Origin: an uncultured delta proteobacterium
GTDB lineage: Bacteria; Desulfobacterota; Binatia; JACPRU01
NCBI GenBank assembly: GCA_963745025.1
Contig: CAVUWD010000019.1
Location: forward strand, 192,001-256,000
Length of the DNA: 64,000 nt
Direction: 5' to 3'
Shown here one piece after another: positions 5,781 through 43,400 of this stretch. The notes beneath the pieces are model-generated. The model was not told the origin of the DNA. It did not search any database and saw nothing but the letters and a program-made list of their open reading frames with translations. Numbering within the stretch: position 1 is the stretch's first letter; each line of letters opens with the position of its first letter. The position numbers and the translations under genes are program-made.

Positions 5781-5853
5781 TTCCGGCCGGGTTGCCCCTG
5801 TGGAACGCGGCCCCTATAATCCCTCGCATCCGACGATTCTCTCGGCTCCGCAC

Positions 5854-7271
5854 ATGACGAGACCACAGAAGACTCTGGGCGACTTGAAGCGCGCCGGCAT
5901 CCACGTCCTTCCGGTTCGCGAGGAGATGCGCCGCAACCTCATCGATCGCATGACGCGCCGCGAGCGTATTCTGCCGGGCATCATCGGCTACGACGACACC
6001 GTCGTCCCGGAGATCGAGAACGCGATCCTCGCCGGTCACCACATGGTGTTCCTCGGCGAGCGCGGCCAGGCGAAGAGCCGCATCATCCGCGGCCTCGTCG
6101 ACGCTGCTCGACGCGGACGTCCCGGTCGTCGCCGGCTGCGAGATCAACGACGATCCCTTCGCGCCGATCTGCCGCGCGTGCCGCCGCCGCGCTCGCCGAG
6201 CGAGGGCGACGCGCTGCCGATCGCCTGGCTCGGCGCGCGACGCACCGCTACGGCGAGAAGCTCGCCACGCCCGACGTCTCGATCGCCGACCTGATCGGCG
6301 AGATCGACCCGGTGAAGGTCGCCGAGGGCCGCTACCTCGCCGACGAGGAGACCATCCACTACGGGCTCGTGCCGCGCACCAACCGCGGCATCTTCGCCAT
6401 CAACGAGCTGCCCGACCTGACCGAGAAGGTGCAGGTCGGTCTCTTCAACCTGATGGAGGAGAAGGACGTCCAGATCAAAGGCTACAAGGTCCGTCTGCCG
6501 CTCGACGTGGTCATCGTCGCCAGCGCGAACCCCGAGGACTACACCAGCCGCGGCCGCATCATCACGCCGCTCAAGGACCGCTTCGACGTGCAGATCCGCA
6601 CTCACTATCCGCGCACGATCGAGGACGAGATCGCCATCATGGAGCAGGAGGTGCCGGCGCGCGACCGCGCACGCCGCGGCCGCTGCGCGTTCCGCCGTTC
6701 CTGAAGGAGATCCTCGCCCAGCTGACGATCGAGGCGCGGGCCTCGAACGAGATCAACCAGTCGTCGGGCGTGAGCGTGCGCGTCACCATCAACAACTACG
6801 AGAGCCTTCTCTCGAACGCCGAGAAGCGCGCGCGTGCGACTCGGCGAGCCGGAGATCGTTCCGCGCCTCAGCGACCTGCCAGCTCTGTCTCGCCTCGACG
6901 GCCGGCAAGATCGAGCTCGAGTACGTCGGCGAGGACGAAGGAGGAAGAGGATCTGATCGAGCGTCTGATCAACCGCGCCGATCCTCAAGATCTTCGACAA
7001 GTACCTGAAGGTCGAGGAGCTGCAAGCAGGTCATCGAGTACTTCGAGGCGGGCTGGGGCGTCGAGGTGTCCGACACGATGCCCGTCGGAGGACTATCTGC
7101 GAGGGCATTCGAGCCGATTCCCGGGCCTCCGCGAGGGCATTCGCGCGCTCGGACCCTTCGAGAGCCCGGGGCTGCATGGCCGCCGCTACCGAGTTCGTGC
7201 TCGAGGGGCTGCATCTCCACCAGAAGCTCAACAAGGAACAGGAGGGCGCTCGGTACGTGTATCGGGCATAG
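5854..7271 (+). CDS. Magnesium-chelatase-like AAA+ ATPase, frameshifted
   Basis: Walker-A variant [44 protein letters not shown] across frames; TAG at 7269-7271. Confidence 0.88.
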
Positions 7272-7274
7272 GAT

Positions 7275-7335
7275 GGGCTAGGGGCTGCGGGAAAGGCATC
7301 ACAGGGTCTTTCTGTAGCCGGTAGCCCGTAGCCGG
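7275..7335. repeat. Heptamer-armed palindromic intergenic element, copy 1
   Basis: GGGCTA/GGCTGC left arm, core GAAAGGCATCACAGGGTCTTTC, right arm of GTAGCCG-like units; resembles copies at 38938, 43401, 45139. Confidence 0.7.
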
Positions 7336-7342
7336 CGTTTCC

Positions 7343-8930
7343 ATGTTCCGCAGCCGATACACCCGCTGGGACGGCAGTCAGCGGATCCAGCTGACGCCGT
7401 CGCAAGTCTTCGAAAAGCTCTCGGAGTACCTCTCGTTCACCGACGACCTGCAGCAGGCGATGGACTGGCTGCTGCGTCAGGGAATGGAGTGGGAGGGTGC
7501 GCGGGTCGTCGGTCTCGACGATCTGCTCGAGCAGTTGCGCGAGGAGATGCGCAAGCGTTACCGCGAGTTCAACCTGGACCATTCGCTCGACGACGCTGCG
7601 CGACAAGCTCGACGGAGATCGTCGATCTCGAACGCTCGGCCCTGGAGCAGATGGGCGAACGCGGAAACGAGAAGCGCGAGTTTCTCGACCGGCTGCCGTT
7701 GCGCCTCGCCAGGCGATCGAGCAGCTTCAGCAATACCGATTCGAGGATCGCGACGCGGAGCGGGATTTTCGAGAACCTCCTCGAGGAGCTCGGTAACATC
7801 CGCGATCTCGAGGAGTTCCAGTCGGCGGTACGGGGATCTCTTCCACGGACAACAGTCGCTCGAATACGGCGAGGCCGTCGAACTGATGCGCGAGATGGAG
7901 CGGTTGAAGAAGCTCGAGGAAGATCTCTTCTCGGGGAACCTCGGCGGCCTGGATCTCGAGTCGATCCGCGAGCTGCTCGGCGCCCAGGCTGCGCAGGACG
8001 TGCAGACGCTGCAGCGGATCATGAAGATGCTCGGGGACTCGGGTTACGTCCTGCAGCAAAGCGGCCGCCAGAAGCTTTCGCCGAAGGGCGTCCGCAAGAT
8101 CGGGCAGCTCGCGCTGCGCGACATCTACGAGAATCTGCTTCGCGATCGGCTCGGGGATCATTCGGCGGACCAGCGGGGCCCGGTCGAGATTCGTCCGGAA
8201 GAGAGTCGCCCCTACGAATACGGCGACCCGCTCCACCTCGACCTCGTGGCGACCCTGAAGAAGGCGCTGACCCGCCGCCGGGGCACGCCGCTGGCGCTCG
8301 AGCCGGGCGACTTCGAGATCTTGCGTACGGACGCGACGACGACGACGTCCACCGTGCTGCTCCTCGACATGAGCTGGTCGATGAGCTGGGAGGGGCGATT
8401 CGCGGCGGCGAAGAAGGTGGCGATGGCGCTCGAGAGCTTGCTGCGCTCGCGCTATCCGCGTGACTACTTCGGCATGGTCGGATTCTTCACGCGCGCCGTG
8501 GAGCTCAAGCTGAGGGACCTGCCCGAGGCCTAGCTGGAACATGGGCGACCCGTTCACGAATCTCCAGGACGGCCTTCGGCTGGCGGGGGATCTCCTGGCG
8601 AAGCATCCGAGCCGCAACCGACACATCATCGTCATCACCGACGGACAACCGACCGCGTATTTCTCGCGGGGCCGCCTCTACTGCGAATGGCCGCTGTCGT
8701 TCGGCGGCATCAGCACGCGCGCCGCGGCGGAGACGCTGAAGGAGGTCGAGCGGGTGACGCGGCGAGGCATCGTGATCAACACGTTCATGCTCGACGACAG
8801 CCCACCGCTACGCGCGTTCGTCGAACGCATGACGCGCATCAACAAGGGCCGAGCGCTGTACACCCGACCGGACCACCTCGGCGAATACCTGCTGATCGAC
8901 TATCTGGGACGACGCCGGAAGAAGGTGTGA
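7343..8930 (+). CDS. VWA-domain partner of the AAA+ ATPase, frameshifted
   Basis: RYTRWDG start, MIDAS motifs LLLDMSWSM and ITDGQPT, TNLQDGL; +1 shift at about 8531 and indels at about 7600-7830. Confidence 0.88.
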
Positions 8931-23989: not shown

Positions 23990-24130
23990 ATGCCTCAACT
24001 CGGAAAACGGTATGTCTGCGAGAGCTGCGGGACCGAGATTCTCTGCAACAAGCCGGGGACGGGAGCGACGTCCTGCTGCGAGCAGGACATGAAGCTCAAG
24101 GAAGCCAAGCCGCTACCCTCCTCGGATTGA
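23990..24130 (+). CDS. Desulforedoxin-type mini-protein A (46 aa), absent from ORF track
   Basis: MPQLGKRYVCESCGTEILCNKPGTGATSCCEQDMKLKEAKPLPSSD; CxxC-x15-CC; SD AGGAGG; stop overlaps next start. Confidence 0.85.
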   Translation: MPQLGKRYVCESCGTEILCNKPGTGATSCCEQDMKLKEAKPLPSSD

Positions 24131-25593
24131 CCGTCAGGCCCTTGAGGGCCGATCTCATTCTCCTCGGCCACGTGTGGACCGGGGACCGAGAGCGCCCGCA
24201 CGCCCGGGCGGTCGCGGTGCTCGGCGCCCGGATCGCCGCCGTCGGCGACGAGGGGGAGATCCTCCGCCTGCGCGGCGCCGCCACGGAGGTGCTCGGCGGC
24301 CGCGACGCCACGATCCTCCCGGGATTCGTCGACGCGCATCTCCATCTCCTCGCCCTCGCGCGGCGCGCCGAGGAGGTCGACTGCTCGAGGGAGAGCGTGC
24401 GCTCGGTGGCGGAGCTCGTCGCGAAGATCCGCGCGGCCGCTGCGTCGCGACCTCCCGGGAGCTGGATCCGCGCGTTCGGTTACGACGAGTTCTTTCTCGA
24501 GGAGAAGCGTCCACCCCGCGTGGCCGATCTCGACGCGGCGGCCCCCGCCCATGCGGTTCGCTTGTTGCACCGCACGGGACACGCCGCCGTGCTCAACACG
24601 GTGGCGTGTCAGAGGCTCGGCATGGCGCCCTGCGAGGTGATCTACGAGCCGGCGGGTCTGTTGCGCGGCCGGATTCCCGCCCCGTCCGCCGCCGAAGCGA
24701 AGAGGCTCGTCGCGGCCGCTTCCGATCGACTGCTCGCCTCGGGCATCACGATGTTCCACGACCCGTCGCCCGGCCAGAGCGCGGCCGACATCGAGCATTT
24801 GCGAGCGTGGGTCGAGGAGGGGACGATCCGCCAGCGGGTGATTGCGCTCGGCGCCAGCACGGGCTTCGAGCCGGGCGACCGAGCCAGTCGATGGTTTCGC
24901 CACGCGGGTGTGAAGATCATGATCGGTGAAGCCGGCGACGCCGACGAGATCGCCGCGCAAGTTGCCGCGGCGGATCGTCGTGGGGCGCAAGTCGCGCTGC
25001 ACGCCGTCGAGGGGGCCGCGCTCGTGGTGGCGATCGAGGCGCTACGCCGGCTCGGTCCGGCCCGCACGCGGGCGCGGCGCCATCGCATCGAGCATGCCGC
25101 GCTTTGTCCGCCGCCGCTCTGCGAGGCGATCGCCGAAAGCGGCGCCGCTGTCGTCACCCACCCGGGCTTCCTTCGCCGCTTTGGGGAGAAATATCGAAGC
25201 GAGCTTCGTCGCGAAGAGGAGGATTGGCTCTATCCCTTACGACGCTTTCTCGATTCTGGAGTTCCGCTCGCGTTCGGGTCCGATGCACCGATTGCCCCGC
25301 CTTCGCCTCTGGACAACGTCAGCGCCGCGCTCTTGCGAGAGAGCGAAGGGGGAGCGCGGCTCGGGCCCTCGCAACGGATTCTCGCGGCCGAAGCGCTGGC
25401 GCTGCACACGCAGGGCGGCGCGTGGGTGGGCGGGCTCGACTCGATCTGCGGGTCGCTGGCGCCGGGCCGGCTCGCCGATCTCGTCGTGGTCGATCGTGAT
25501 CCGCTCGAGGTCCCGCCCGCGGAGATCGCCGCCATCCGGGTCCGGGCGACGGTGATCGAAGGGCGCGTCGTTTGGAGACGTGGCGACGTATGA
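24127..25593 (+). CDS. Amidohydrolase family 3 (YtcJ-like)
   Basis: PGFVDAHLH, HAVEG, RHRIEH, FGSDAP, GRLADLVV. Confidence 0.92.
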   Translation: MTVRPLRADLILLGHVWTGDRERPHARAVAVLGARIAAVGDEGEILRLRGAATEVLGGRDATILPGFVDAHLHLLALARRAEEVDCSRESVRSVAELVAKIRAAAASRPPGSWIRAFGYDEFFLEEKRPPRVADLDAAAPAHAVRLLHRTGHAAVLNTVACQRLGMAPCEVIYEPAGLLRGRIPAPSAAEAKRLVAAASDRLLASGITMFHDPSPGQSAADIEHLRAWVEEGTIRQRVIALGASTGFEPGDRASRWFRHAGVKIMIGEAGDADEIAAQVAAADRRGAQVALHAVEGAALVVAIEALRRLGPARTRARRHRIEHAALCPPPLCEAIAESGAAVVTHPGFLRRFGEKYRSELRREEEDWLYPLRRFLDSGVPLAFGSDAPIAPPSPLDNVSAALLRESEGGARLGPSQRILAAEALALHTQGGAWVGGLDSICGSLAPGRLADLVVVDRDPLEVPPAEIAAIRVRATVIEGRVVWRRGDV

Positions 25594-26306
25594 GTGCATT
25601 TCGCACGATCCTCTTCGAACGCCGCGGGCAGGTGGCGTGGGTCACCCTCAACCGTCCCGACGTGCGCAACGCCTACAACACCGAGATGCGCGACGACCTC
25701 CACGCCGCGCTCTCGACCGTTCGAGACGACGAGTCGCTGCGTGCGCTCGTCCTCCGCGGCGCCGGTCCCGCGTTCTGCTCCGGCGGGGACATCCGCGAGT
25801 TCGGATCGGCTCCGTCGCCGGTCGTCGCTCGCGAGGTGCGCTGGCGGCGAGACGTATGGGGGCTCCTCCGCTCGCTGCGCCAGCCGACGATCGCGGCGAT
25901 TCACGGTCACGCCGCCGGCAGCGGCCTCGAGATGGCGCTGCTCTGCGACTTCCGTATCGCCGCAACCGATGCGATTCTTTCGCTGCCCGAGACCGGTCTC
26001 GGCATGATCCCCGGCGTCGTCGGCACGCAGACCGCCCCGCGGGCGATCGGCGTCGGGCGGACGCTCGACCTGGTATTGACCGGCCGGCAGATTGACGCTC
26101 GCGAGGCTCGCCGTGTAGGAGTCGTGGGCTCGGTGGTGTCGTCGGCGCGCCTAGCGGACGAGGCGAACCGGCTGGCGCGCCGGTTGGTGAAGCTCGACGG
26201 AGAGTTGATTTCCCGAGTGAAGAATCTCGTCGTTCGCGGCCTCGATCTACCGCTCACACTGGCGCTTGCTCGAGAGCGTCTCGTCGCAGGGAGAACGAAT
26301 CCATGA
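25590..26306 (+). CDS. Enoyl-CoA hydratase/crotonase
   Basis: LNRPDVRNA, AFCSGGD, GSGLEMAL, LPETGLGMIPG (both catalytic Glu present). Confidence 0.92.
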   Translation: MSAFRTILFERRGQVAWVTLNRPDVRNAYNTEMRDDLHAALSTVRDDESLRALVLRGAGPAFCSGGDIREFGSAPSPVVAREVRWRRDVWGLLRSLRQPTIAAIHGHAAGSGLEMALLCDFRIAATDAILSLPETGLGMIPGVVGTQTAPRAIGVGRTLDLVLTGRQIDAREARRVGVVGSVVSSARLADEANRLARRLVKLDGELISRVKNLVVRGLDLPLTLALARERLVAGRTNP

Positions 26307-27853
26307 ATACCGCAAGCTTTCTCAGCATCCCGGCTTCGATGTTCGGCGACCAGGAGATCCTGGTGTTCGGCCCGCACCGGCGCTGTTACGGAGAGTTGCT
26401 CTCGCGCGTGCGCCGGCTCGCCGCCTCGATGCGGCAGGCGGGCATCGGCAAGGGGGACGTGGTCGCCGCGCTGCAGACGAACTCCGACACGTACCTCGAG
26501 ACGTATTACGCGAGCGCGACCCTGGGCGCCGTCTTCGTTCCGCTCAACTACCGAGCGAAGCCGCCGGAACTCGAATACGCGATCGCGACGGCGAAGACGA
26601 AGATGATCTTCGTCGGTGACCGCTACGCCGACCTGTTCGAAGCGCTTCGGCCGAAGCTGCCGTCGATCGCCTCCATCGTGACATACGAGAGCGGGGATTC
26701 GGGCTGGCTACGCTACGAAGAGCTCCTCGAGAACCAGGAAGAAGTCGAGGATACCGACGTCGAGGAGAGCGACGTCTCGATCCTCATGTACACGAGCGGG
26801 ACGACCAGTCTGCCGAAAGGCGTGCTCCTCACCCACGGCGATTTCACCGCGTACGTCACCAACACCATCGAGCTCGCCGACGGCTCCGACCGGGGCACCG
26901 CGCTCGTTTCCGTGCCATTTTACCACATCGCCGGCACCACGCAGATGATGACCACGATGTGGTCGGGGCGCCGACTGGTGATTCGTCCGCAGTTCCAAGC
27001 GACGGAGTGGCTGGAGACGGTTCAGCGCGAGTCTGTCACGCACGCGATCGTCGTGCCGACGATGCTCAAGCAGATCGTCGACCATCCCGACCTCGAGAAG
27101 TACAATCTGTCGACGCTCACGAATCTCTCGTACGGCGGCGCGCAGATGCCGTTGCCCGTGATTCGCCGCGCGATCGAGCGGCTGCCGAAGACGATCGGCT
27201 TCGTCAACGCCTACGGTCAGACCGAGACCACTTCGACGCTGACGATCCTCGGTCCCGACGATCATCGGCTGGAGGGTTCGCGCGAAGAGGTCGAAAAGAA
27301 GGTGCGCCGCCTGGCCTCGATCGGCAAGCCGCTGCCCGACGTCGAGGTCCGGGTCGTGGACGACGCCGGCAACCCGTTGCCGGCGGGCGAGGTCGGCGAG
27401 ATCGTGGTTCGTACGCCGCGCATGATGAAGGGCTATGCGACCGAGAGCGGCGCCGCGATGAGCCTGCTCGAGGGCGGATGGCTCCGCACCCGCGACATGG
27501 GCTGGGTCGACGAGGACGGCTACATCTATCTCGCGGGCCGCAAGGACGACATGATCATCCGCGGCGGCGAGAACATCGCGCCCGCCGAGGTCGAAGCCGT
27601 GTTGCAGAGTCATCCGGGCGTCGACGACGTCGCGGTGTTCGGCGTGCCGAGCGACGAGTGGGGGCAGATCGTCGCCGCCGCGGTCGTACTCCGGAGCGAA
27701 GGATCTCTCTCGGCGCAGGACCTCGCCGAGTTCTGCAAGCAACGGCTGGCGAGCTTCAAGAAGCCCGAGAAGATCTTGTTCATGCCGGAGCTGCCGCGCA
27801 ATCCGCTCGGCAAGGTGCTCAAGAAAGATCTGAAGCAGCAATTCGGAGACTGA
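26303..27853 (+). CDS. Acyl-CoA synthetase (AMP-forming)
   Basis: YTSGTTSLPKG, YGQTET, TRD, GRKDDMIIRGGENI, PRNPLGK. Confidence 0.95.
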   Translation: MNTASFLSIPASMFGDQEILVFGPHRRCYGELLSRVRRLAASMRQAGIGKGDVVAALQTNSDTYLETYYASATLGAVFVPLNYRAKPPELEYAIATAKTKMIFVGDRYADLFEALRPKLPSIASIVTYESGDSGWLRYEELLENQEEVEDTDVEESDVSILMYTSGTTSLPKGVLLTHGDFTAYVTNTIELADGSDRGTALVSVPFYHIAGTTQMMTTMWSGRRLVIRPQFQATEWLETVQRESVTHAIVVPTMLKQIVDHPDLEKYNLSTLTNLSYGGAQMPLPVIRRAIERLPKTIGFVNAYGQTETTSTLTILGPDDHRLEGSREEVEKKVRRLASIGKPLPDVEVRVVDDAGNPLPAGEVGEIVVRTPRMMKGYATESGAAMSLLEGGWLRTRDMGWVDEDGYIYLAGRKDDMIIRGGENIAPAEVEAVLQSHPGVDDVAVFGVPSDEWGQIVAAAVVLRSEGSLSAQDLAEFCKQRLASFKKPEKILFMPELPRNPLGKVLKKDLKQQFGD

Positions 27854-28605
27854 TGGCGCGACGCAGCCGAGCGGTGACGTTCGACCGGCGAGGGCATCTC
27901 GCCGAGCTGGTCCTGGACCTCCGCGAGAGCGGGGGCCGCTTCACGCCCGAGTCCGCCGTGGCGTTCTCGGAGGCCTGCACTCGATGCGACGACGAAGAGG
28001 TCTGGGTGGTGCTGTTGCGTTCGGCGGCTCCCGACCTCTGCATCGGCCTCGAGGGCCGGTTCTCCGATTGGCCGCGGGTCTCGGGCACCGACTTCGTGAC
28101 CTCGCTGGCGTCGATCCGCCAGCCGGTTGTGCTTGCCGTGCGGCGTCGCGCCGAGGCCGAAGGCTTCGAGTTCGCGCTGGCCGCCGATCTCCGCGTCGTC
28201 GAGCCGCGGACCCGGTTCTTGATGCCGCAGGTGGCGGCCGGGACCCTGCCGGGCTTCGGCGGCACCCAGCGCCTGCCCCGACTCGTCGGGGTCGAGCGAA
28301 CGCTGCGCGCGCTGCTACTCGGCGAGCCGATCTCGGGCAGGAAGGCGGTCGAGTGGGGACTCGCGACGCGCCTCGAGGCACGTGCCGATCGCGCGGCGCT
28401 CCGGCTCGCGAAGACGCTTCTCGAGCGTGGTCCACTCTCCCTCCGTTTTGCGAAGGAAGCCGTACGCCGCTCGTTGGATCTCGCTCTTGACGACGGTGCG
28501 CGTTTCGAGCACGACCTCTACGTGTTGCTCGAGACGACGCGCGACCGCGCCGAGGGAGTCGACGCGTTTCTCGGCAAGCGAAAACCGAAATTTCGAGGAC
28601 AATAG
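27853..28605 (+). CDS. Degenerate crotonase-fold protein
   Basis: EGFEFALAADLR, MPQVAAGTLPGFGGTQRLPRLVG, EGVDAFLGKRKPKF; ATG overlaps ligase stop. Confidence 0.88.
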   Translation: MARRSRAVTFDRRGHLAELVLDLRESGGRFTPESAVAFSEACTRCDDEEVWVVLLRSAAPDLCIGLEGRFSDWPRVSGTDFVTSLASIRQPVVLAVRRRAEAEGFEFALAADLRVVEPRTRFLMPQVAAGTLPGFGGTQRLPRLVGVERTLRALLLGEPISGRKAVEWGLATRLEARADRAALRLAKTLLERGPLSLRFAKEAVRRSLDLALDDGARFEHDLYVLLETTRDRAEGVDAFLGKRKPKFRGQ

Positions 28606-28615
28606 GAGACCGGTG

Positions 28616-28735
28616 ATGCCGAACCAGCTGGGAAAGATGTACGTCTGCGCGAAGTGTGGAGCTCAAGTGATCGTCACCAAGGCGGGCAGCGGCTCGCTCC
28701 AGTGCTGTGGTCAGCCGATGGAGCAAAAGAAGTAG
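28616..28735 (+). CDS. Desulforedoxin-type mini-protein B (39 aa)
   Basis: MPNQLGKMYVCAKCGAQVIVTKAGSGSLQCCGQPMEQKK; CxxC-x15-CC; SD AGGAG. Confidence 0.88.
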   Translation: MPNQLGKMYVCAKCGAQVIVTKAGSGSLQCCGQPMEQKK

Positions 28736-29326
28736 ATGGCCCGCCTTCGGCCGCTCGAGGGGCGTGACGCAGGGCTCGTCACGAGGGCCGTTCAGGCTGT
28801 CTTCCGCCTCGCTCTCGGCCGCGAACTCAACCCGTACAAGCTGGAAGCGTATGCGCCGCGCACGGTGCTCGCGTCGTTTCTGTCGAACACCCTGATGACG
28901 ACCGGGCGTTGGGCGCTGGCGGGGGATTTCCGGCAGATGATCCGCGTCCGCGTCGCGGCGCTCAACGGATGCCCGTTCTGAATGGACATCAACGCCGCCG
29001 TGGGCGGCCAGCGCGGGCTGCCTCAGGAGAAGATCGATGCGGCGCTCGGCGTGCGCTCGGCCGACGCGGCCGGCCTTTCGAGCCGCGAGCGACTCGCCCT
29101 CGAATACAGCGATCGGGTGAGCGCCACGCCGGTCGACGTCCCCGACGACTTCTTCGCGCGACTCGCCGCCGAGTTCTCGGAACGAGAGATCGTCGAGCTA
29201 ACCGCTACGATCGCCCACGAGAACTACAATTCCAAGTTCAATCGGCCACTGCGGATCGAAGCGAACAACTTCTGCCAGATCCCTCTGCCGACGCCGGAAG
29301 AGCTGGCGGCAAGGAGAGCCGGATGA
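28736..29326 (+). CDS. AhpD/carboxymuconolactone decarboxylase-family protein, candidate selenoprotein (CxxU)
   Basis: RVAALNGCPF-TGA(28979-28981)-MDINAAVG in one frame; C-half LSSRERLALEY...FSEREIVELT..IAHENY.SKFN. Confidence 0.82.
28982..29010 (+). promoter_or_regulatory. Candidate bacterial SECIS hairpin
   Basis: GCCGCC(28994-28999)-GUG-GGCGGC(29003-29008); loop starts with G, 18 nt after UGA. Confidence 0.6.
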
Positions 29327-31224: not shown

Positions 31225-33000
31225 CTAGCTGACTAGCTTGGCGGAAAGGATCCGCGCGGTGTTGAACACGCGCTGGTCCTGCCGGAGGCGGCAGAAGCCG
31301 GTGAGGTAACGCCCGTCGAAGCTCGACGGCTCGACGATCCGGCGAGTCACACCCTGAAAACCGTCGTACTCGATCTCCATCGGCGTGTGATTCTCGACCG
31401 CCGTGAGTAGCAACGCGCGGATGTCTTCGCTGTCGCGCGCCTCGGTCGGCGCCTTGGGCTTCCTTTTCGCGCTCTTGCCGTGCACGCGCAGGAGCTTTTC
31501 GACCAGCGACTCGAGCTCTTGGGCGCGCGTCGGCGCCCCCGTGTCCTCTCGCCGTGTGAGCTCGAGAGCGAGGATCTCCTCGAGCGCGGCGAGCGCCGAG
31601 AGGTCGAAGTCGGGATCCACCTCGCGCGCCAGTTTGGTCGCCGCGCGCACCGCCGCATAGATCTCCTCGAACTCGGGGCGCGTGAGCGTGAGCTGTGCGC
31701 CGCGGGCGGTCACCTGCACCTTGTCGGTTCCCGCCGACGAGACGCTGTAGCCGGCCTTGCGGAGCTCTCTTCCGAGGGTCGCGAGGTCGACGTTCGACGT
31801 GAGCAGCGCGAGCGCATCGCCGATGCGGCGCTGGATGTAGGGGGCGAAGCGCGGATTGGCTTCGAGCTCACCGAGCAGCGTGCCCTCGCGGGCCTCGATG
31901 TAGGGCCCGGCGACGCCGATCCGCACCTCTCCGTGGCGGCCCTCGCAGTCCTCGACGAGCTGGCGCACGGTGGCCGGTACGCCGGTCCCGCTCACCGATT
32001 CGAGGAATGCGAGCAGCTCGCCGGCGGAGAATCCACGGTCGAGCGCGTTCATCAGCGAGTCCCACGTGATCGCGAACGCCGTGTAGATGTCGACCGAGCG
32101 CAGATCGCCAAGCCGGGCGAGGTTCAGGTAGACACCCGGGTCGAGGTCCGGCGGCGCGAGAATCTCGAGATTCGGCTGCAGCGTCACACGGGCCGCGGAA
32201 TCCGAGAGCGCGGTGCCGAAGCTCTGGATGATCCCCGGCCAATTCTCCGTGAGCACCAGTCGGCCGAGCGGTGAGACGCGAAACGCTTCCGCCTCCGAGA
32301 CGGCCGGCGGACGCCGTACCAGCGGTTCCACCAGTCCGAGCCAGGCGAGCGGACCAGCGAGCATTCGCCGCAGCAGCGTTGCCGGCGAGACGCGTCCGCC
32401 GTAGCGCGACATGGCGCCGTCGTCGGCGCCGCGACCGCGCGCCTGGAGGCTTCGGTCGAGTCGAGACAGCAGCGTGCCGATCTCGATCGATTCGCCTTCT
32501 GGTGCGGCGAGCAATTCTTCGCAGAGGCGGCGGCGTCGTGCCTCTAGCCCCGGGTCGGCCGAGATGTATTCGCGCCGGACGAGTGACAGCACGTCGGGAT
32601 CGGCGAGCGATTCGTTCCAGAGCGCGGTGCGCAGCCAGAAATGGTGGACCGAGCGGAGCAGGCGCTCCGGCTGCCAGAGCCGGATCAGATTCGGCCGGCT
32701 GATTTCCCAGCGATCCTCGCCCTCGAAGAGCACGCGGCGATCGATGAGGAAGACGCCGAGGAAGCTCGCGTACTCCTCGTCGCTTCGGCGCAGGAAGGGC
32801 GCGATCCGTTGGGTCGTCTTCTTGCCGATGCCACCGGTCGCGACCCGCTTCGTCGAGACGCGCTCGAAGTGGCCGGCAAACGTCAAGAGATCCCGGGCGA
32901 AGGTGTCGAAGGCCTCGCTGCGCTCGCGCAGGACGGCCGCGGCGGACGCCGCGACCGGCCGTGCCGGCTTTGCCTTGATCGTCTTGTTCGCGCGAGGCAT
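31225..33000 (-). CDS. XPB-associated protein: helicase-associated (Helicase_C_3-like) domain plus C-terminal WYL domain
   Basis: VTLQPNLEILAP...SLMNALDRG...GVPATVRQLVED; C-term IEY..RRIVEP..LTGFCRLRQDQRVFNTARI. Confidence 0.82.
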   Translation of the reverse strand: MPRANKTIKAKPARPVAASAAAVLRERSEAFDTFARDLLTFAGHFERVSTKRVATGGIGKKTTQRIAPFLRRSDEEYASFLGVFLIDRRVLFEGEDRWEISRPNLIRLWQPERLLRSVHHFWLRTALWNESLADPDVLSLVRREYISADPGLEARRRRLCEELLAAPEGESIEIGTLLSRLDRSLQARGRGADDGAMSRYGGRVSPATLLRRMLAGPLAWLGLVEPLVRRPPAVSEAEAFRVSPLGRLVLTENWPGIIQSFGTALSDSAARVTLQPNLEILAPPDLDPGVYLNLARLGDLRSVDIYTAFAITWDSLMNALDRGFSAGELLAFLESVSGTGVPATVRQLVEDCEGRHGEVRIGVAGPYIEAREGTLLGELEANPRFAPYIQRRIGDALALLTSNVDLATLGRELRKAGYSVSSAGTDKVQVTARGAQLTLTRPEFEEIYAAVRAATKLAREVDPDFDLSALAALEEILALELTRREDTGAPTRAQELESLVEKLLRVHGKSAKRKPKAPTEARDSEDIRALLLTAVENHTPMEIEYDGFQGVTRRIVEPSSFDGRYLTGFCRLRQDQRVFNTARILSAKLVS

Positions 33001-33007
33001 GTCCCGC

Positions 33008-34735
33008 TCAGCCCGTGTCCGAGGAGCGCCGGTCACCCGCGGCGTCCGCGGTTTGCGCCAGCGGCGTCCAGGCGCGGATCTCGTACTGGTAGCCCTGTTC
33101 GGTGAGGAAGCGCTGGCGGTTCTGCGCGAACTCCTGATCACGCGTGTCGCGTGTCACCAGCGCATAGAAGCGCGCCTGGTTCGCATCGGCCTTGGGGCGC
33201 AGGATGCGGCCGAGCCGCTGCGCCTCCTCCTGCCGCGATCCGAACGTTCCGGAGACCTGAATCGCCACGTTGGCGTCGGGCAGATCGATCGCGAAGTTGG
33301 AGACCTTCGAAACGATCAGCAGGTTCAGCTCCGATCCTCGGAACTTCTCGTAGAGAACGTCGCGCTCGGCCTGTGGCGTCTTTCCGGTGATGAGGGGTGC
33401 GCCCGTGTCGGCGGCGATCGCTTCGAGCTGATCGATGTACTGCCCGATCACCAGCACCTTGTCGCCGCGGTGTTCTGCGAGGAGCGCGGCGAGGAGTTCC
33501 CGCTTCAAGGGGTTGGTGGAGGAGATGCGGAACTTGGCGCGCGCATCGGCGACCGCGTATTGGCGACGCGACTCCGCAGTCAACGGGATGCGGATCTCGG
33601 TGCAGCGGGCAGTGGCGATCCACCCCTGACGCTCCAGATCCTTCCACGGAACGTCGTAGCGCTTAGGACCGATCAAGGTGAAGACGTCGTCCTCGCCGCC
33701 GTCCTCGCGGACGAGCGTCGCGGTCAAGCCCAGCCGGCGGCGCGCCTGCAGGTCGGCGGTGGCGCGGAACACGGGCGCCGGCAGAAGATGGACTTCGTCG
33801 TAGATGATGAGGCCCCAGTCCCGCTCGGCGAAGAGCTTGAAGTGAAGGAACTCTTCGTTCTTGCCGCGCCGGTAGGTGAGCAGCTGGTACGTACTCAGCG
33901 TCACGGGACGGATCTCCTTCTCGTGGCCGCTGTACTCGCCGATTTGATCGGCGGTCAGGTCCGTCTTGTCGAGAATCTCGTCACGCCACTGGCGCAGGGC
34001 GCTGACGTTCGCCGTCAGAATCAGCGTCTGGGTCTGGAGCTTCGCCATCACGCCGAGGCCGACGATCGTCTTGCCCGCGCCGCACGGCAGCACGATCACC
34101 CCCGAACCGCCGCGGTTCGAGCCGTCGGCGTGGAAGAGACGCACCGCCTCCTCTTGATAGTGGCGCAGGAGGAATGGCCGGCCGGCGATCGTGTCGTTGC
34201 GAAGCTCGATCGTGAGCGGCGCACCATCGACGTAGCCGGCGAGGTCTTCGACCGGAAAGCCGGCCTTGATCAACGCTTGCTTGAGCGTGCCACGCACCCC
34301 TGGCTTGACCGCCAGCGAGCGGGCGTCGATCGGCGCGTCGAGGCACGGCTCCACCGCCTTGAGCCGCGAGATCTCCTCCAGCAACCACGCTTCATCGGAC
34401 TCGAGGACGAGCCGGTCATCCGCGCCGCGCACCAGCCGAAGCTTGCCGTAGCGGCCGACGATGTCCTCGACGTCGAAGCGCACGTTTTGCGGCACGGGGT
34501 ACTTCGAAAGCTCGTCGAGCGCGGTTAGAATGTGCGCTGCCGCGAGTCCTGCGGCCGCCGCGTTCCATAGCGAGAGCGGCGAGAGCCGGTACGTGTGGAT
34601 GTGTTCCGGGCTCTTCTCCAGCTCCGCGAAGCGGGAAATCGAGTCGCGCGCCTCCTCGTAACTAGGATGGGCGGTTTCGAGGAGAATCGTACGATCGGAC
34701 TGGACGATCAGTGGGCCTTGGGAGCGTTCTGGCAA
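33008..34735 (-). CDS. XPB/Rad25-family DNA helicase
   Basis: PLIVQSDRTILLE, LPCGAGKT, DEVH, LGLTAT, QRLGRILR. Confidence 0.95.
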   Translation of the reverse strand: MPERSQGPLIVQSDRTILLETAHPSYEEARDSISRFAELEKSPEHIHTYRLSPLSLWNAAAAGLAAAHILTALDELSKYPVPQNVRFDVEDIVGRYGKLRLVRGADDRLVLESDEAWLLEEISRLKAVEPCLDAPIDARSLAVKPGVRGTLKQALIKAGFPVEDLAGYVDGAPLTIELRNDTIAGRPFLLRHYQEEAVRLFHADGSNRGGSGVIVLPCGAGKTIVGLGVMAKLQTQTLILTANVSALRQWRDEILDKTDLTADQIGEYSGHEKEIRPVTLSTYQLLTYRRGKNEEFLHFKLFAERDWGLIIYDEVHLLPAPVFRATADLQARRRLGLTATLVREDGGEDDVFTLIGPKRYDVPWKDLERQGWIATARCTEIRIPLTAESRRQYAVADARAKFRISSTNPLKRELLAALLAEHRGDKVLVIGQYIDQLEAIAADTGAPLITGKTPQAERDVLYEKFRGSELNLLIVSKVSNFAIDLPDANVAIQVSGTFGSRQEEAQRLGRILRPKADANQARFYALVTRDTRDQEFAQNRQRFLTEQGYQYEIRAWTPLAQTADAAGDRRSSDTG

Positions 34736-35074
34736 GCGACCTCCGGACGTAGGAGGAAAAACGTATCTTATAGCAATACTTTCGGCGCGCTGCACGTCCG
34801 GTGACGCGGTTCCGTCGAGGCACGATCGTGGCCGCCCCGGCCCCTCCTCCCGCCATCGCCCCGCCCCTCCGGCAAAGCGGGGTGTCGCTTCCCTCCGCGC
34901 CACGAGAGGATTCCTGAAGCCGTGGGCGGGGGACGCGGGAAGACGCACGTTGACTGGTTTTCAGGCAGTCGTTATACGATCGTGAACTCCGTAGCGGGAA
35001 GCCATCGTGAACGCATCGTCCGAGAAACTCTGGCGCAGATCGTGGAGGCGCTCGGCTCACCCCCCAGGAGGTAG

Positions 35075-41598: not shown

Positions 41599-42216
41599 GT
41601 GTCGGTTCGGGTGAAGATCTGCGGCGTGACCACGGTGGAGGACGCGCTCCTCTGCGCGGACGCCGGCGCCGACGCCATCGGGCTCAATTTCTGGAGCGGC
41701 TCGAAGCGTCGAATCGACGTCGAGCGCGCCGCGGCAATCGCCCGCGCGCTGCCGCCGTCCGTGTTGAAGGTGGGGGTGTTCGTCAACGCCGAACGGGCCG
41801 CGATCGAACGAGCGATTGCCGGCGCATGTCTCGATGCCGTTCAACTCCACGGCCACGAGGCCCCGGAGCACTGTCGCGGGTTCGCCGTCCCGGTGATCAA
41901 GGCGATCCGCGTGACGCTCGGAGGCGAATCGCCTTCGGTGATCGCAGAACGCTTCGCCGTGGATTACATTCTGCTCGATGCCGATTGTGGCGGGGAATAC
42001 GGCGGCAGCGGACGCTCATTCGATTGGCAGCGAGCGGCAGGCGTGGCGCCGGGGCGTCTGTTTCTGGCCGGCGGCCTGCGCCCGGAAAACGTGGCGGCGG
42101 CGATTCGCATGGCGGGCCCCTACGGCGTCGACACCGCAAGCGGCGTCGAGAGCACGCCTGGGCGCAAGGACCCGATGCTGGTGAGGGAGTTCATTCACAA
42201 TGCCAAGCATGCCTGA
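41599..42216 (+). CDS. trpF: Phosphoribosylanthranilate isomerase
   Basis: [29 protein letters not shown]. Confidence 0.96.
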
Positions 42217-43394
42217 CCGCAGCGGCCACTACGGAGAGTTCGGCGGGCGCTACGTGTCGGAAACGCTGATGCCCGCGCTCCTCGAACTCGAGGCGGCATA
42301 TCGGGAGTCGCGGCGCGATGCGGGCTTCCAGGCCGAGGTGCGCGAGCGTTTGCGTCACTACGTCGGCCGCCCGACGCCGCTCTACTTCGCCGAGAATCTG
42401 ACGCTGCGGCTTGCCGGCGGGCGGATCTACCTGAAGCGCGAAGACCTCTGTCACACCGGCGCGCACAAGATCAATAACACGATCGGCCAGGGTCTACTGG
42501 CCCGGCGGATGGGCAAGCGGCGAATCATTGCCGAGACCGGCGCGGGCCAGCACGGCGTCGCGACCGCGACCGTGGCCGCGCTGCTTGGAATGGACTGCGA
42601 GATCTTCATGGGCAGGGAAGACGTCCACCGGCAGTCGCTCAACGTCTTCCGCATGAAGCTGCTCGGCGCGAGGGTGCGCGTCGTCGAGTCCGGAACCCAG
42701 ACGCTCAAGGACGCGATGAACGAAGCGCTCCGCGATTGGATCGCGACCGTCGAGACGACGTTCTACTGTATCGGCTCGGTGGCCGGCCCGCACCCCTATC
42801 CGCAGATCGTTCGTGACTTCCAATCGGTGATCGGGCGAGGAGTCGCGCCGGCAGATCCTGCGCGCGGCTGGGCGGTTGCCCGACGCGCTGGTCGCCTGCG
42901 TCGGCGGCGGCAGCAACGCGATCGGACTCTTCCATCCTTTTCTCGACGAGGCCACGGTGACGATGTACGGTGTCGAGGCGGCCGGTCGCGGTCTCGACAG
43001 CGGCCAGCACGCGGCGACGCTCGCGCGCGGTCAGATCGGCGTCCTGCACGGCAACAAGACCTACCTCCTGCAAGACGAACTCGGTCAGATCCGCCCGACG
43101 CACTCCATCTCCGCCGGGCTCGACTACCCGGGCGTCGGACCCGAGCACAGCTACTTGAGGGATACGGGACGCGTGGAGTACGTCGTGGCCACGGACGAGG
43201 AGGCGATCGCGGCGCTGCAGCTCTTGACCGAGACCGAGGGAATCATTCCGGCGCTCGAGAGCGCGCATGCGGTGGCGTTCGCCGCCCGCCTCGCTCCCAA
43301 GCTCGACAAGGACAAGATCGTGATCGTCAATCTCTCCGGCCGGGGCGACAAGGACATGGCGACCGTCGCGGATCACCTCGGGGTGACGCTGTGA
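42209..43394 (+). CDS. trpB: Tryptophan synthase beta chain, frameshift near 42840
   Basis: [18 protein letters not shown]; then [26 protein letters not shown] in a shifted frame. Confidence 0.96.
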
Positions 43395-43400
43395 AGGGAA

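Follow-up and report, generated by a model that had tools for sequence, protein, structure and literature searches.

A predicted AhpD-like CxxU selenoprotein of a Binatia bacterium, split at its UGA codon by gene callers

The locus and its reading frame

We have analysed a 64-kb stretch of genomic DNA (the window) from an uncultured bacterium of the Binatia. Positions 28736 to 29326 on the forward strand appear to form a single coding sequence for an AhpD-like protein (PF02627), which would be a selenoprotein of 196 amino acids if the UGA at codon 82 specifies selenocysteine (Sec); the assignment draws on Pfam, fold and dN/dS results. The original prediction had joined the ORF pieces 28736-28981 and 28982-29326 in one frame as NGCPF-UGA-MD, and both coordinates and translation agree with it. 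The ATG at 28736, the TGA at 28979-28981, the ATG at 28982 and the final TGA at 29324-29326 share one frame, and readthrough of the first TGA yields a 196-residue protein containing NGCPF-U-MDINAAVGG. The redox motif C79-P-F-U82 (28970-28981, forward strand) stands at the start of a helix formed by residues 80-92, and its last codon is the in-frame UGA (28979-28981) that we infer to be Sec codon 82. The AUG that follows directly (28982-28984, Met83) is the point at which gene callers restart and is probably no real start codon.

Pfam finds the CMD domain in the joined protein only (residues 65-113, 32.3 bits against a cutoff of 23); neither half-protein alone was matched by Pfam. In comparison with the three nearest relatives, dN/dS lies between 0.06 and 0.11 in both halves; it is higher between less closely related sequences, whose synonymous sites are near saturation. 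Purifying selection acts on both halves of the gene.

Upstream on the same strand is a cluster (23990-28605) composed of a desulforedoxin-like ORF, an amidohydrolase, an enoyl-CoA hydratase, an acyl-CoA ligase and a further enoyl-CoA hydratase, followed by a 39-aa stand-alone desulforedoxin-like ORF (PF06397; 28616-28735, forward strand), the TAG of which directly adjoins the ATG at 28736. The amidohydrolase/enoyl-CoA hydratase/acyl-CoA ligase cluster is in this way bracketed by two desulforedoxin-like ORFs of 38-39 aa (23990-24103 and 28616-28735), both of which are conserved in the related loci L001, L002, L004, L012 and L013. The segment 29323-29570, between the gene and a convergent HAD hydrolase, holds no convincing ORF, and the downstream genes that are kept (HAD, HIT) vary among relatives. 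A promoter and terminator scan gave nothing beyond chance near the gene.

Codon 82 and the hairpin downstream of it

A genome scan returned 247 related stretches, and the best 80 of these 247 loci were used for a census of codon 82. The codon is TGA in 72 loci, TGC in 7 and TGT in one, and TAA or TAG in none; seven loci that a stricter pattern had failed to match were later resolved and are counted among the 80. The alignment of homologues for Cys/UGA pairing that the original prediction called for thus gave 72 TGA codons, eight Cys codons and no other stop, so that UGA, far from being absent from homologues, occupies this position in 72 of 80. The pairing spans many phyla. Readthrough produces AhpD-like proteins in all 80 loci, a few of them short at the N-terminus (contig ends or start choice). 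In a quick tree, the window gene belongs to a 15-member clade (SH-aLRT 100, stem 1.14) made up of Binatia, other 'Deltaproteobacteria', two Bacillota, one Acidobacteria and one Myxococcales MAG; the labels Binatia or Binatota are attached to syntenic loci whose proteins are 85% and 66% identical.

The same UGA occurs in two cultured strains, Effusibacillus consociatus (L024) and Reyranella soli (L032). A Bacillota MAG (L005) carries a second AhpD-like paralogue with CPF-UGA at 2092-2667 on the reverse strand, about 7 kb from the first. This paralogue was the only one of the 49 candidates past the filters of a screen for other UGA readthroughs in which a Pfam domain extended across the UGA; the screen found no further selenoprotein gene in the 64-kb window. 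In another locus (L018, 5137-6501, forward strand) a frame continues past a TGA whose context is GCT-U and which is followed at 18 nt by a SECIS-like hairpin; it may be a further selenoprotein, and it had no Pfam match.

The protein databases reflect the division of the gene at this codon. MD is the exact start of 116 of the 120 joined-protein matches listed (313 in total), a count that is biased by the length filter of the search and by the behaviour of gene callers. Among homologues of the N-terminal half, 93 of 94 terminate at CxF/V and 92 of 94 are 81 aa long. Reading these entries as half-proteins cut at a Sec codon would correct a systematic annotation error affecting about 200 of them. 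Five Cys-type relatives (P0275, P0285, P0297, P0302 and P0308), 330-357 aa in length, carry about 140 additional residues at the N-terminus; this hydrophobic region, which had no Pfam match, may be a membrane anchor or a partner domain. Fused or longer forms accounted for one match out of 8000 candidates scored, a result that carries little weight, and by Pfam 16 longer representatives contained CMD only, except that one also contained SEC-C.

Downstream of the UGA is a SECIS-type hairpin, GCCGCC-GUG-GGCGGC (28994-29008, forward strand), contained within codons A87-A88-V89-G90-G91. Its arms are at 28994-28999 and 29003-29008 and its GTG loop at 29000-29002; the distance from the UGA is 12 nt to the stem and 18 nt to the loop, so the 6-bp GC stem with GUG loop that had been noted after the UGA is present as described. 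The region has a GC content of 68%, and by itself the hairpin is no more than chance would give. Folds of 39-101 nt of the window sequence had z values of +0.15, -0.87, +0.73 and -0.39 against dinucleotide shuffles, a rival hairpin captured the 3' arm in two of these four folds, and against a null of synonymous codons the hairpin had p = 0.16. Only when relatives are included does it exceed chance.

These comparisons used 73 TGA genes (the 72 loci and the window) and the 8 Cys genes. A G at +19/+20 is found in 72 of 73 TGA genes against 1 of 8 Cys genes. Codons +3 to +12 fold better than the synonymous null in 66 of the 73 (mean z -1.25; p <= 0.05 in 20), whereas the same test gave z -0.08 for the Cys genes and between -0.03 and -0.33 for three control regions. 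At +9, Ser is encoded by AGY in 25 of 25 cases and Arg by AGR in 12 of 12, as compared with 37% and 7% elsewhere in the same genes, the stem here imposing rare codons. The stem varies in sequence, its forms including GCCGCC/GGCGGC, GCTGCC/GGCAGC, TCTGCC/GGCAGA and GCATCC/GGATGC. Stem cells in the fixed register pair in 79.4% of cases against 67.7% when shuffled (0/500), and double changes number 49 against 17.3, with the true register exceeding all six slid registers; the covariation measures that lie above shuffles are inflated by the relatedness of the sequences, and two of the five, both of the count type, do not lie above them. RNAalifold gave no structure common to the 73 sequences, presumably because loop lengths differ among subfamilies. 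Judged from these alignments, the hairpin is conserved at the RNA level, compensatory changes included, and is a clear example of a SECIS embedded in codon usage.

The published bSECIS model specifies a loop of 3-9 nt with G in its first two positions, a stem of at least 4 bp, a spacing of 16-37 nt and an MFE <= -7.5 (PMC13188914). In our own implementation of this model, the bacterial SECIS search that had been proposed, the window passes at a single-sequence specificity that is low (background 26-43%). Among the TGA genes 56 of 73 pass at 16-37 nt and 53 of 73 at 16-20 nt, while 17 of 73 fail; for the Cys genes the corresponding figures are 3 of 8 and 0 of 8. Over 1944 background positions the rates are 26% at 16-37 nt and 8% at 16-20 nt; the background figure of 26-43% likewise refers to the full range of 16-37 nt. 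Rfam had no matches in the 64-kb window.

In bacteria, SelB carrying Sec-tRNA binds a G-loop hairpin; here it would bind the hairpin within the coding sequence and so direct Sec to UGA82. From the sequence comparisons, Sec insertion at UGA82 in the Binatia host appears almost certain, and it is very likely that a single gene, with UGA82 decoded as Sec, gives a single 196-aa CxxU oxidoreductase of the AhpD fold. The central claim of the original prediction, a 196-aa CxxU AhpD/CMD selenoprotein that pipelines would split, is borne out by the UGA/Cys pairing in 80 of 80 loci, the conservation and covariation of the SECIS, the fold, and the splitting seen in databases.

Fold, known relatives and predicted activity

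Modelled by AlphaFold with U as C (pLDDT 96, pTM 0.92), the joined protein is predicted to fold as one all-helical AhpD-like domain with residue 82 within helix 80-92. It matches the structure of Deinococcus radiodurans AhpD (6k40) with Z 21.6 and rmsd 2.3 Å over 181 residues, and those of PA0269, Atu0492 and Bmp8 with Z 17-18. Identity with gamma-carboxymuconolactone decarboxylase was rejected, as CxxU is present and gamma-CMD/4-CMD chains gave Z 5.0-11.2 against 17-21.6 for AhpD-like chains; that enzyme is described as having no CxxC and a different helix motif (PMC3141380).

AhpD-like selenoproteins were held by the original prediction to be known already, and PMC1088965, PMC9312934 and PMC13188914 indeed describe them. 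AhpD-like and CMD-like CxxU proteins were reported in 2005 from the Sargasso Sea selenoproteome (PMC1088965), were counted in ocean metagenomes (PMC2398784) and bacterial genomes (PMC1794560), and appear in reviews (PMC9312934, PMC13188914) and in BSepDB (PMC13326102). As presented in these sources they are computational predictions, and PMC13188914 gives the exact functions of operon-clustered members as not known. The window protein is a member of this broad class of AhpD-fold CxxU selenoproteins (COG2128/YciW, PF02627), sharing with it the CxxU motif, a PF02627 score above cutoff and a downstream G-loop stem-loop; it differs from the known set in that its lineage is Binatia-centred, not marine, and is set apart by profile score. 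For TIGR01926 (peroxidase-related enzyme), the model listed for the AhpD-like family in a 2026 review (PMC13188914), the window protein scored 39.6 against a cutoff of 81.8, and the best of 25 relatives tested scored 56.3. Its best NCBIfam match, common to all 81 aligned proteins, is NF053654 (GroundWater_YciW, 'YciW-related (seleno)protein'), with a score of 110.2 against a cutoff of 310; four clade members tested scored 105-112. Two of 25 relatives tested, both Blastocatellia with the same UGA, pass this model (L028, 326.7; L060, 342.5), and unlike this sister clade the window clade forms a separate branch with a long stem. NF041047 (GSU3128) gave 18.6 against a cutoff of 110, and NF041238 (AhpD-related selenoproteins) did not match the window protein, which falls outside every curated subfamily model tested. 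What would be new here is a Binatia-centred branch of CxxU AhpD selenoproteins, routinely split by gene callers; no new recoding mechanism or protein class is revealed.

Escherichia coli YnjA (b1753) is 31% identical to the window protein over 170 aa, its CEFC aligning with CPFU. Both proteins lack the His of the AhpD relay and possess a C-terminal Cys, but YnjA has Cys in place of Sec, and ynjA adjoins ABC-transporter and sulfurtransferase genes. No functional study of YnjA was found in the literature searched.

C79 and C/U82 are invariant in 81 of 81 aligned sequences. The segment D84-I85-N86 (28985-28993, forward strand) contains an invariant Asp and has Asn at the canonical position of the AhpD catalytic His; E162-N163 (29219-29224, forward strand), a near-invariant pair in the alignment, are candidate active-site residues; and Cys180 (29273-29275, forward strand), kept in 15 of 15 clade members, is a possible third redox Cys. 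In AhpD the relay is reported to consist of Glu36, Cys48, Tyr50, Cys51 and His55, with both Cys and the His invariant and the His and Glu called essential for peroxidase activity (PMC3141380). The window protein shares the fold and the position of CxxC in a helical hairpin with the canonical AhpD proteins (P. aeruginosa PA0269, M. tuberculosis AhpD and D. radiodurans 6k40), but the second Cys is replaced by Sec and the equivalents of the relay are Gln67, Cys79, Phe81, Sec82 and Asn86. Asn86 thus stands at the site of the canonical His, four residues past the second Cys, and Gln67 at that of the Glu, 12 residues ahead of the first. At position 86, His is found in five of the 15 clade members, one of the 58 TGA genes outside the clade and none of the 8 Cys genes, and the relay Glu position is Glu in 4 of the 15. 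Since the His is absent from the Cys genes too, its loss is a trait of the subfamily and not a consequence of Sec. With both His and Glu of the relay missing, peroxidase activity is not to be assumed.

On the evidence of family and motif, we predict that the product is a selenol/thiol oxidoreductase, and some redox activity seems likely. The Sec82 selenolate would attack a hydroperoxide, an oxidised thiol or a similar oxidant, Cys79 would resolve the product into a selenenylsulfide, and a cellular reductant would regenerate the active site; Asp84 and Glu162/Asn163 are candidate substitutes for the missing Glu/His relay.

It is also conceivable, although unlikely, that the selenoprotein is neither a peroxidase nor a disulfide reductase, an alternative that bears only on function and leaves Sec decoding intact. 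It could for example be a reductive dehalogenase resembling the debrominase Bmp8, or an enzyme of the acyl-CoA pathway encoded nearby that receives electrons from the adjacent desulforedoxin-like protein. Bmp8 has the same fold (Z 18.1, rmsd 3.0 Å over 182 residues), CxxC position and profile (E 6.6e-21), Sec-based dehalogenation is carried out by deiodinases, the canonical peroxidase relay is missing, and an ORF of the Fe-Cys4 type adjoins the gene. However, Bmp8 ranked under six other AhpD-like structural entries, is only 18% identical to the window protein and has no matching gene context; the His three residues after its second Cys (6ohi sequence), which we take to be catalytic, corresponds to Ile85. 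The desulforedoxin/acyl-CoA context is found in 6 of 15 clade members, the closest relatives only, and in none of the 66 other loci, so that a functional link is a lead only; the neighbours in other clades are unrelated, and across the family we found no conserved neighbours, the synteny being clade-specific. The oxidoreductase prediction stated above is preferred.

More doubtful is a wider proposal, that YnjA-type selenoenzymes without the Glu/His relay carry out a new chemistry through Sec82, Asp84, Glu162/Asn163 and Cys180, for instance reductive dehalogenation or an acyl-CoA step. They would form a large family, mostly annotated as split genes, in bacteria from soils and sediments (Binatia, Rokubacteria, Acidobacteria, Planctomycetes and Alphaproteobacteria), with a Binatia branch fed by the 39-aa desulforedoxin-like protein, whose ORF would be translationally coupled to the selenoenzyme gene. 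If true, this would amount to a new selenoenzyme activity and a new pairing of carrier and enzyme.

Other readings of the UGA codon and selenocysteine use in the lineage

A truly split gene, in which translation stops at the UGA and restarts at the adjacent AUG to give chains of 81 and 114 aa, whether as the principal outcome or as an alternative that depends on selenium, is very improbable. UGA-AUG is present in all 15 members of the window's clade, the halves are stored as separate proteins in databases, more genes of the window end in TGA (17 of 25) than in any other stop, and the genes nearby touch or overlap one another. Yet only 19 of the 72 TGA loci, among them all of the 14 nearest, have ATG after the UGA; in the other 53 the next codon is CAG, ATC, GTC, ATT, CAA, CTG, GTT, ACC or ACG, and the residue after the UGA is fixed in other clades too (Gln in 25 members). 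Pairing with the anti-Shine-Dalgarno sequence before the internal ATG is weak, with values between -1.1 and -3.3 kcal/mol in all 15 clade members, whereas 13 true starts have a median of -5.7. A genuine stop would be expected to drift to TAA or TAG, as 0 of 72 did, and in the model the break would fall inside the catalytic helix and remove the second redox residue. Some premature termination at low selenium is expected for any selenoprotein; a programmed second product is unsupported, and the suggestion that the AUG might allow a separate C-terminal product does not survive the comparison with the 53 relatives that lack it.

Decoding of the UGA as another residue, namely as Cys by a suppressor-type tRNA, an insertion that is known at UGA, or as Trp or Gly in a reassigned code, is less probable still. 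Full-length database relatives in which C, W and G stand in place of the UGA do exist (P0002, P0003 and P0014, respectively), but the W and G forms (P0003 and P0014) come from protein records only and are probably alternative-code readthroughs made by gene callers. Of 25 clear genes in the window, which together contain 88 TGG codons, 17 end in TGA; the triplet serves as an ordinary stop there, and therefore the code is not reassigned genome-wide. The non-TGA partner in genomes is Cys in 8 of 8 loci, and the G-loop hairpin goes together with TGA, in keeping with SelB. As for a sequencing error or pseudogene, several window genes look frameshifted, so assembly errors exist, but this explanation has a negligible chance of being correct because 72 independent genomes share the TGA, and both halves are under purifying selection.

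The Sec machinery was sought near the gene. No selA, selB, selD or tRNA-Sec was found in the 64-kb window by tblastn of E. coli SelA, SelB and SelD, by ARAGORN or by Rfam; ARAGORN predicted no tRNA of any kind in the window and no tRNA-Sec in the 80 loci. The tblastn searches, over 1.18 Mb of loci together with the window, gave a clear selD in one of 80 loci, and three weak partial matches (two to SelB, one to SelA) are not counted as sel genes. The clear selD is in L060 (Pyrinomonadaceae), at 5-754 on the reverse strand and continuing just upstream, about 9 kb from the AhpD-like gene; its N-terminus reads through an in-frame CAG-TGA in a CxxU-type motif, as in a Sec-type SelD. Sec use is thereby shown in a genome that bears UGA82.

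For the Binatia themselves, no account of selenocysteine use was found among the papers listed in our literature searches, although Haft and Tolstoy 2025 and Deng et al. 2026 may list the clade. The BSepDB list of examined genomes (PMC13326102) contains at least 11 Binatia rows, a list in which Sec users are not indicated, and in PMC9999580 Binatia and selenium were matched in the reference list only. The gene described here points to selenocysteine use in this group.

Elsewhere in the window, genes at 5800-8930 and 42200-43400 on the forward strand (judged by eye to be an ATPase gene, a vWA-type gene and trpB) appear broken into frames, which suggests indel errors in the assembly. At 31225-34948 on the reverse strand an XPB-like helicase lies next to a helicase-associated/WYL-domain gene, an arrangement that is syntenic in L001, L002 and L013.
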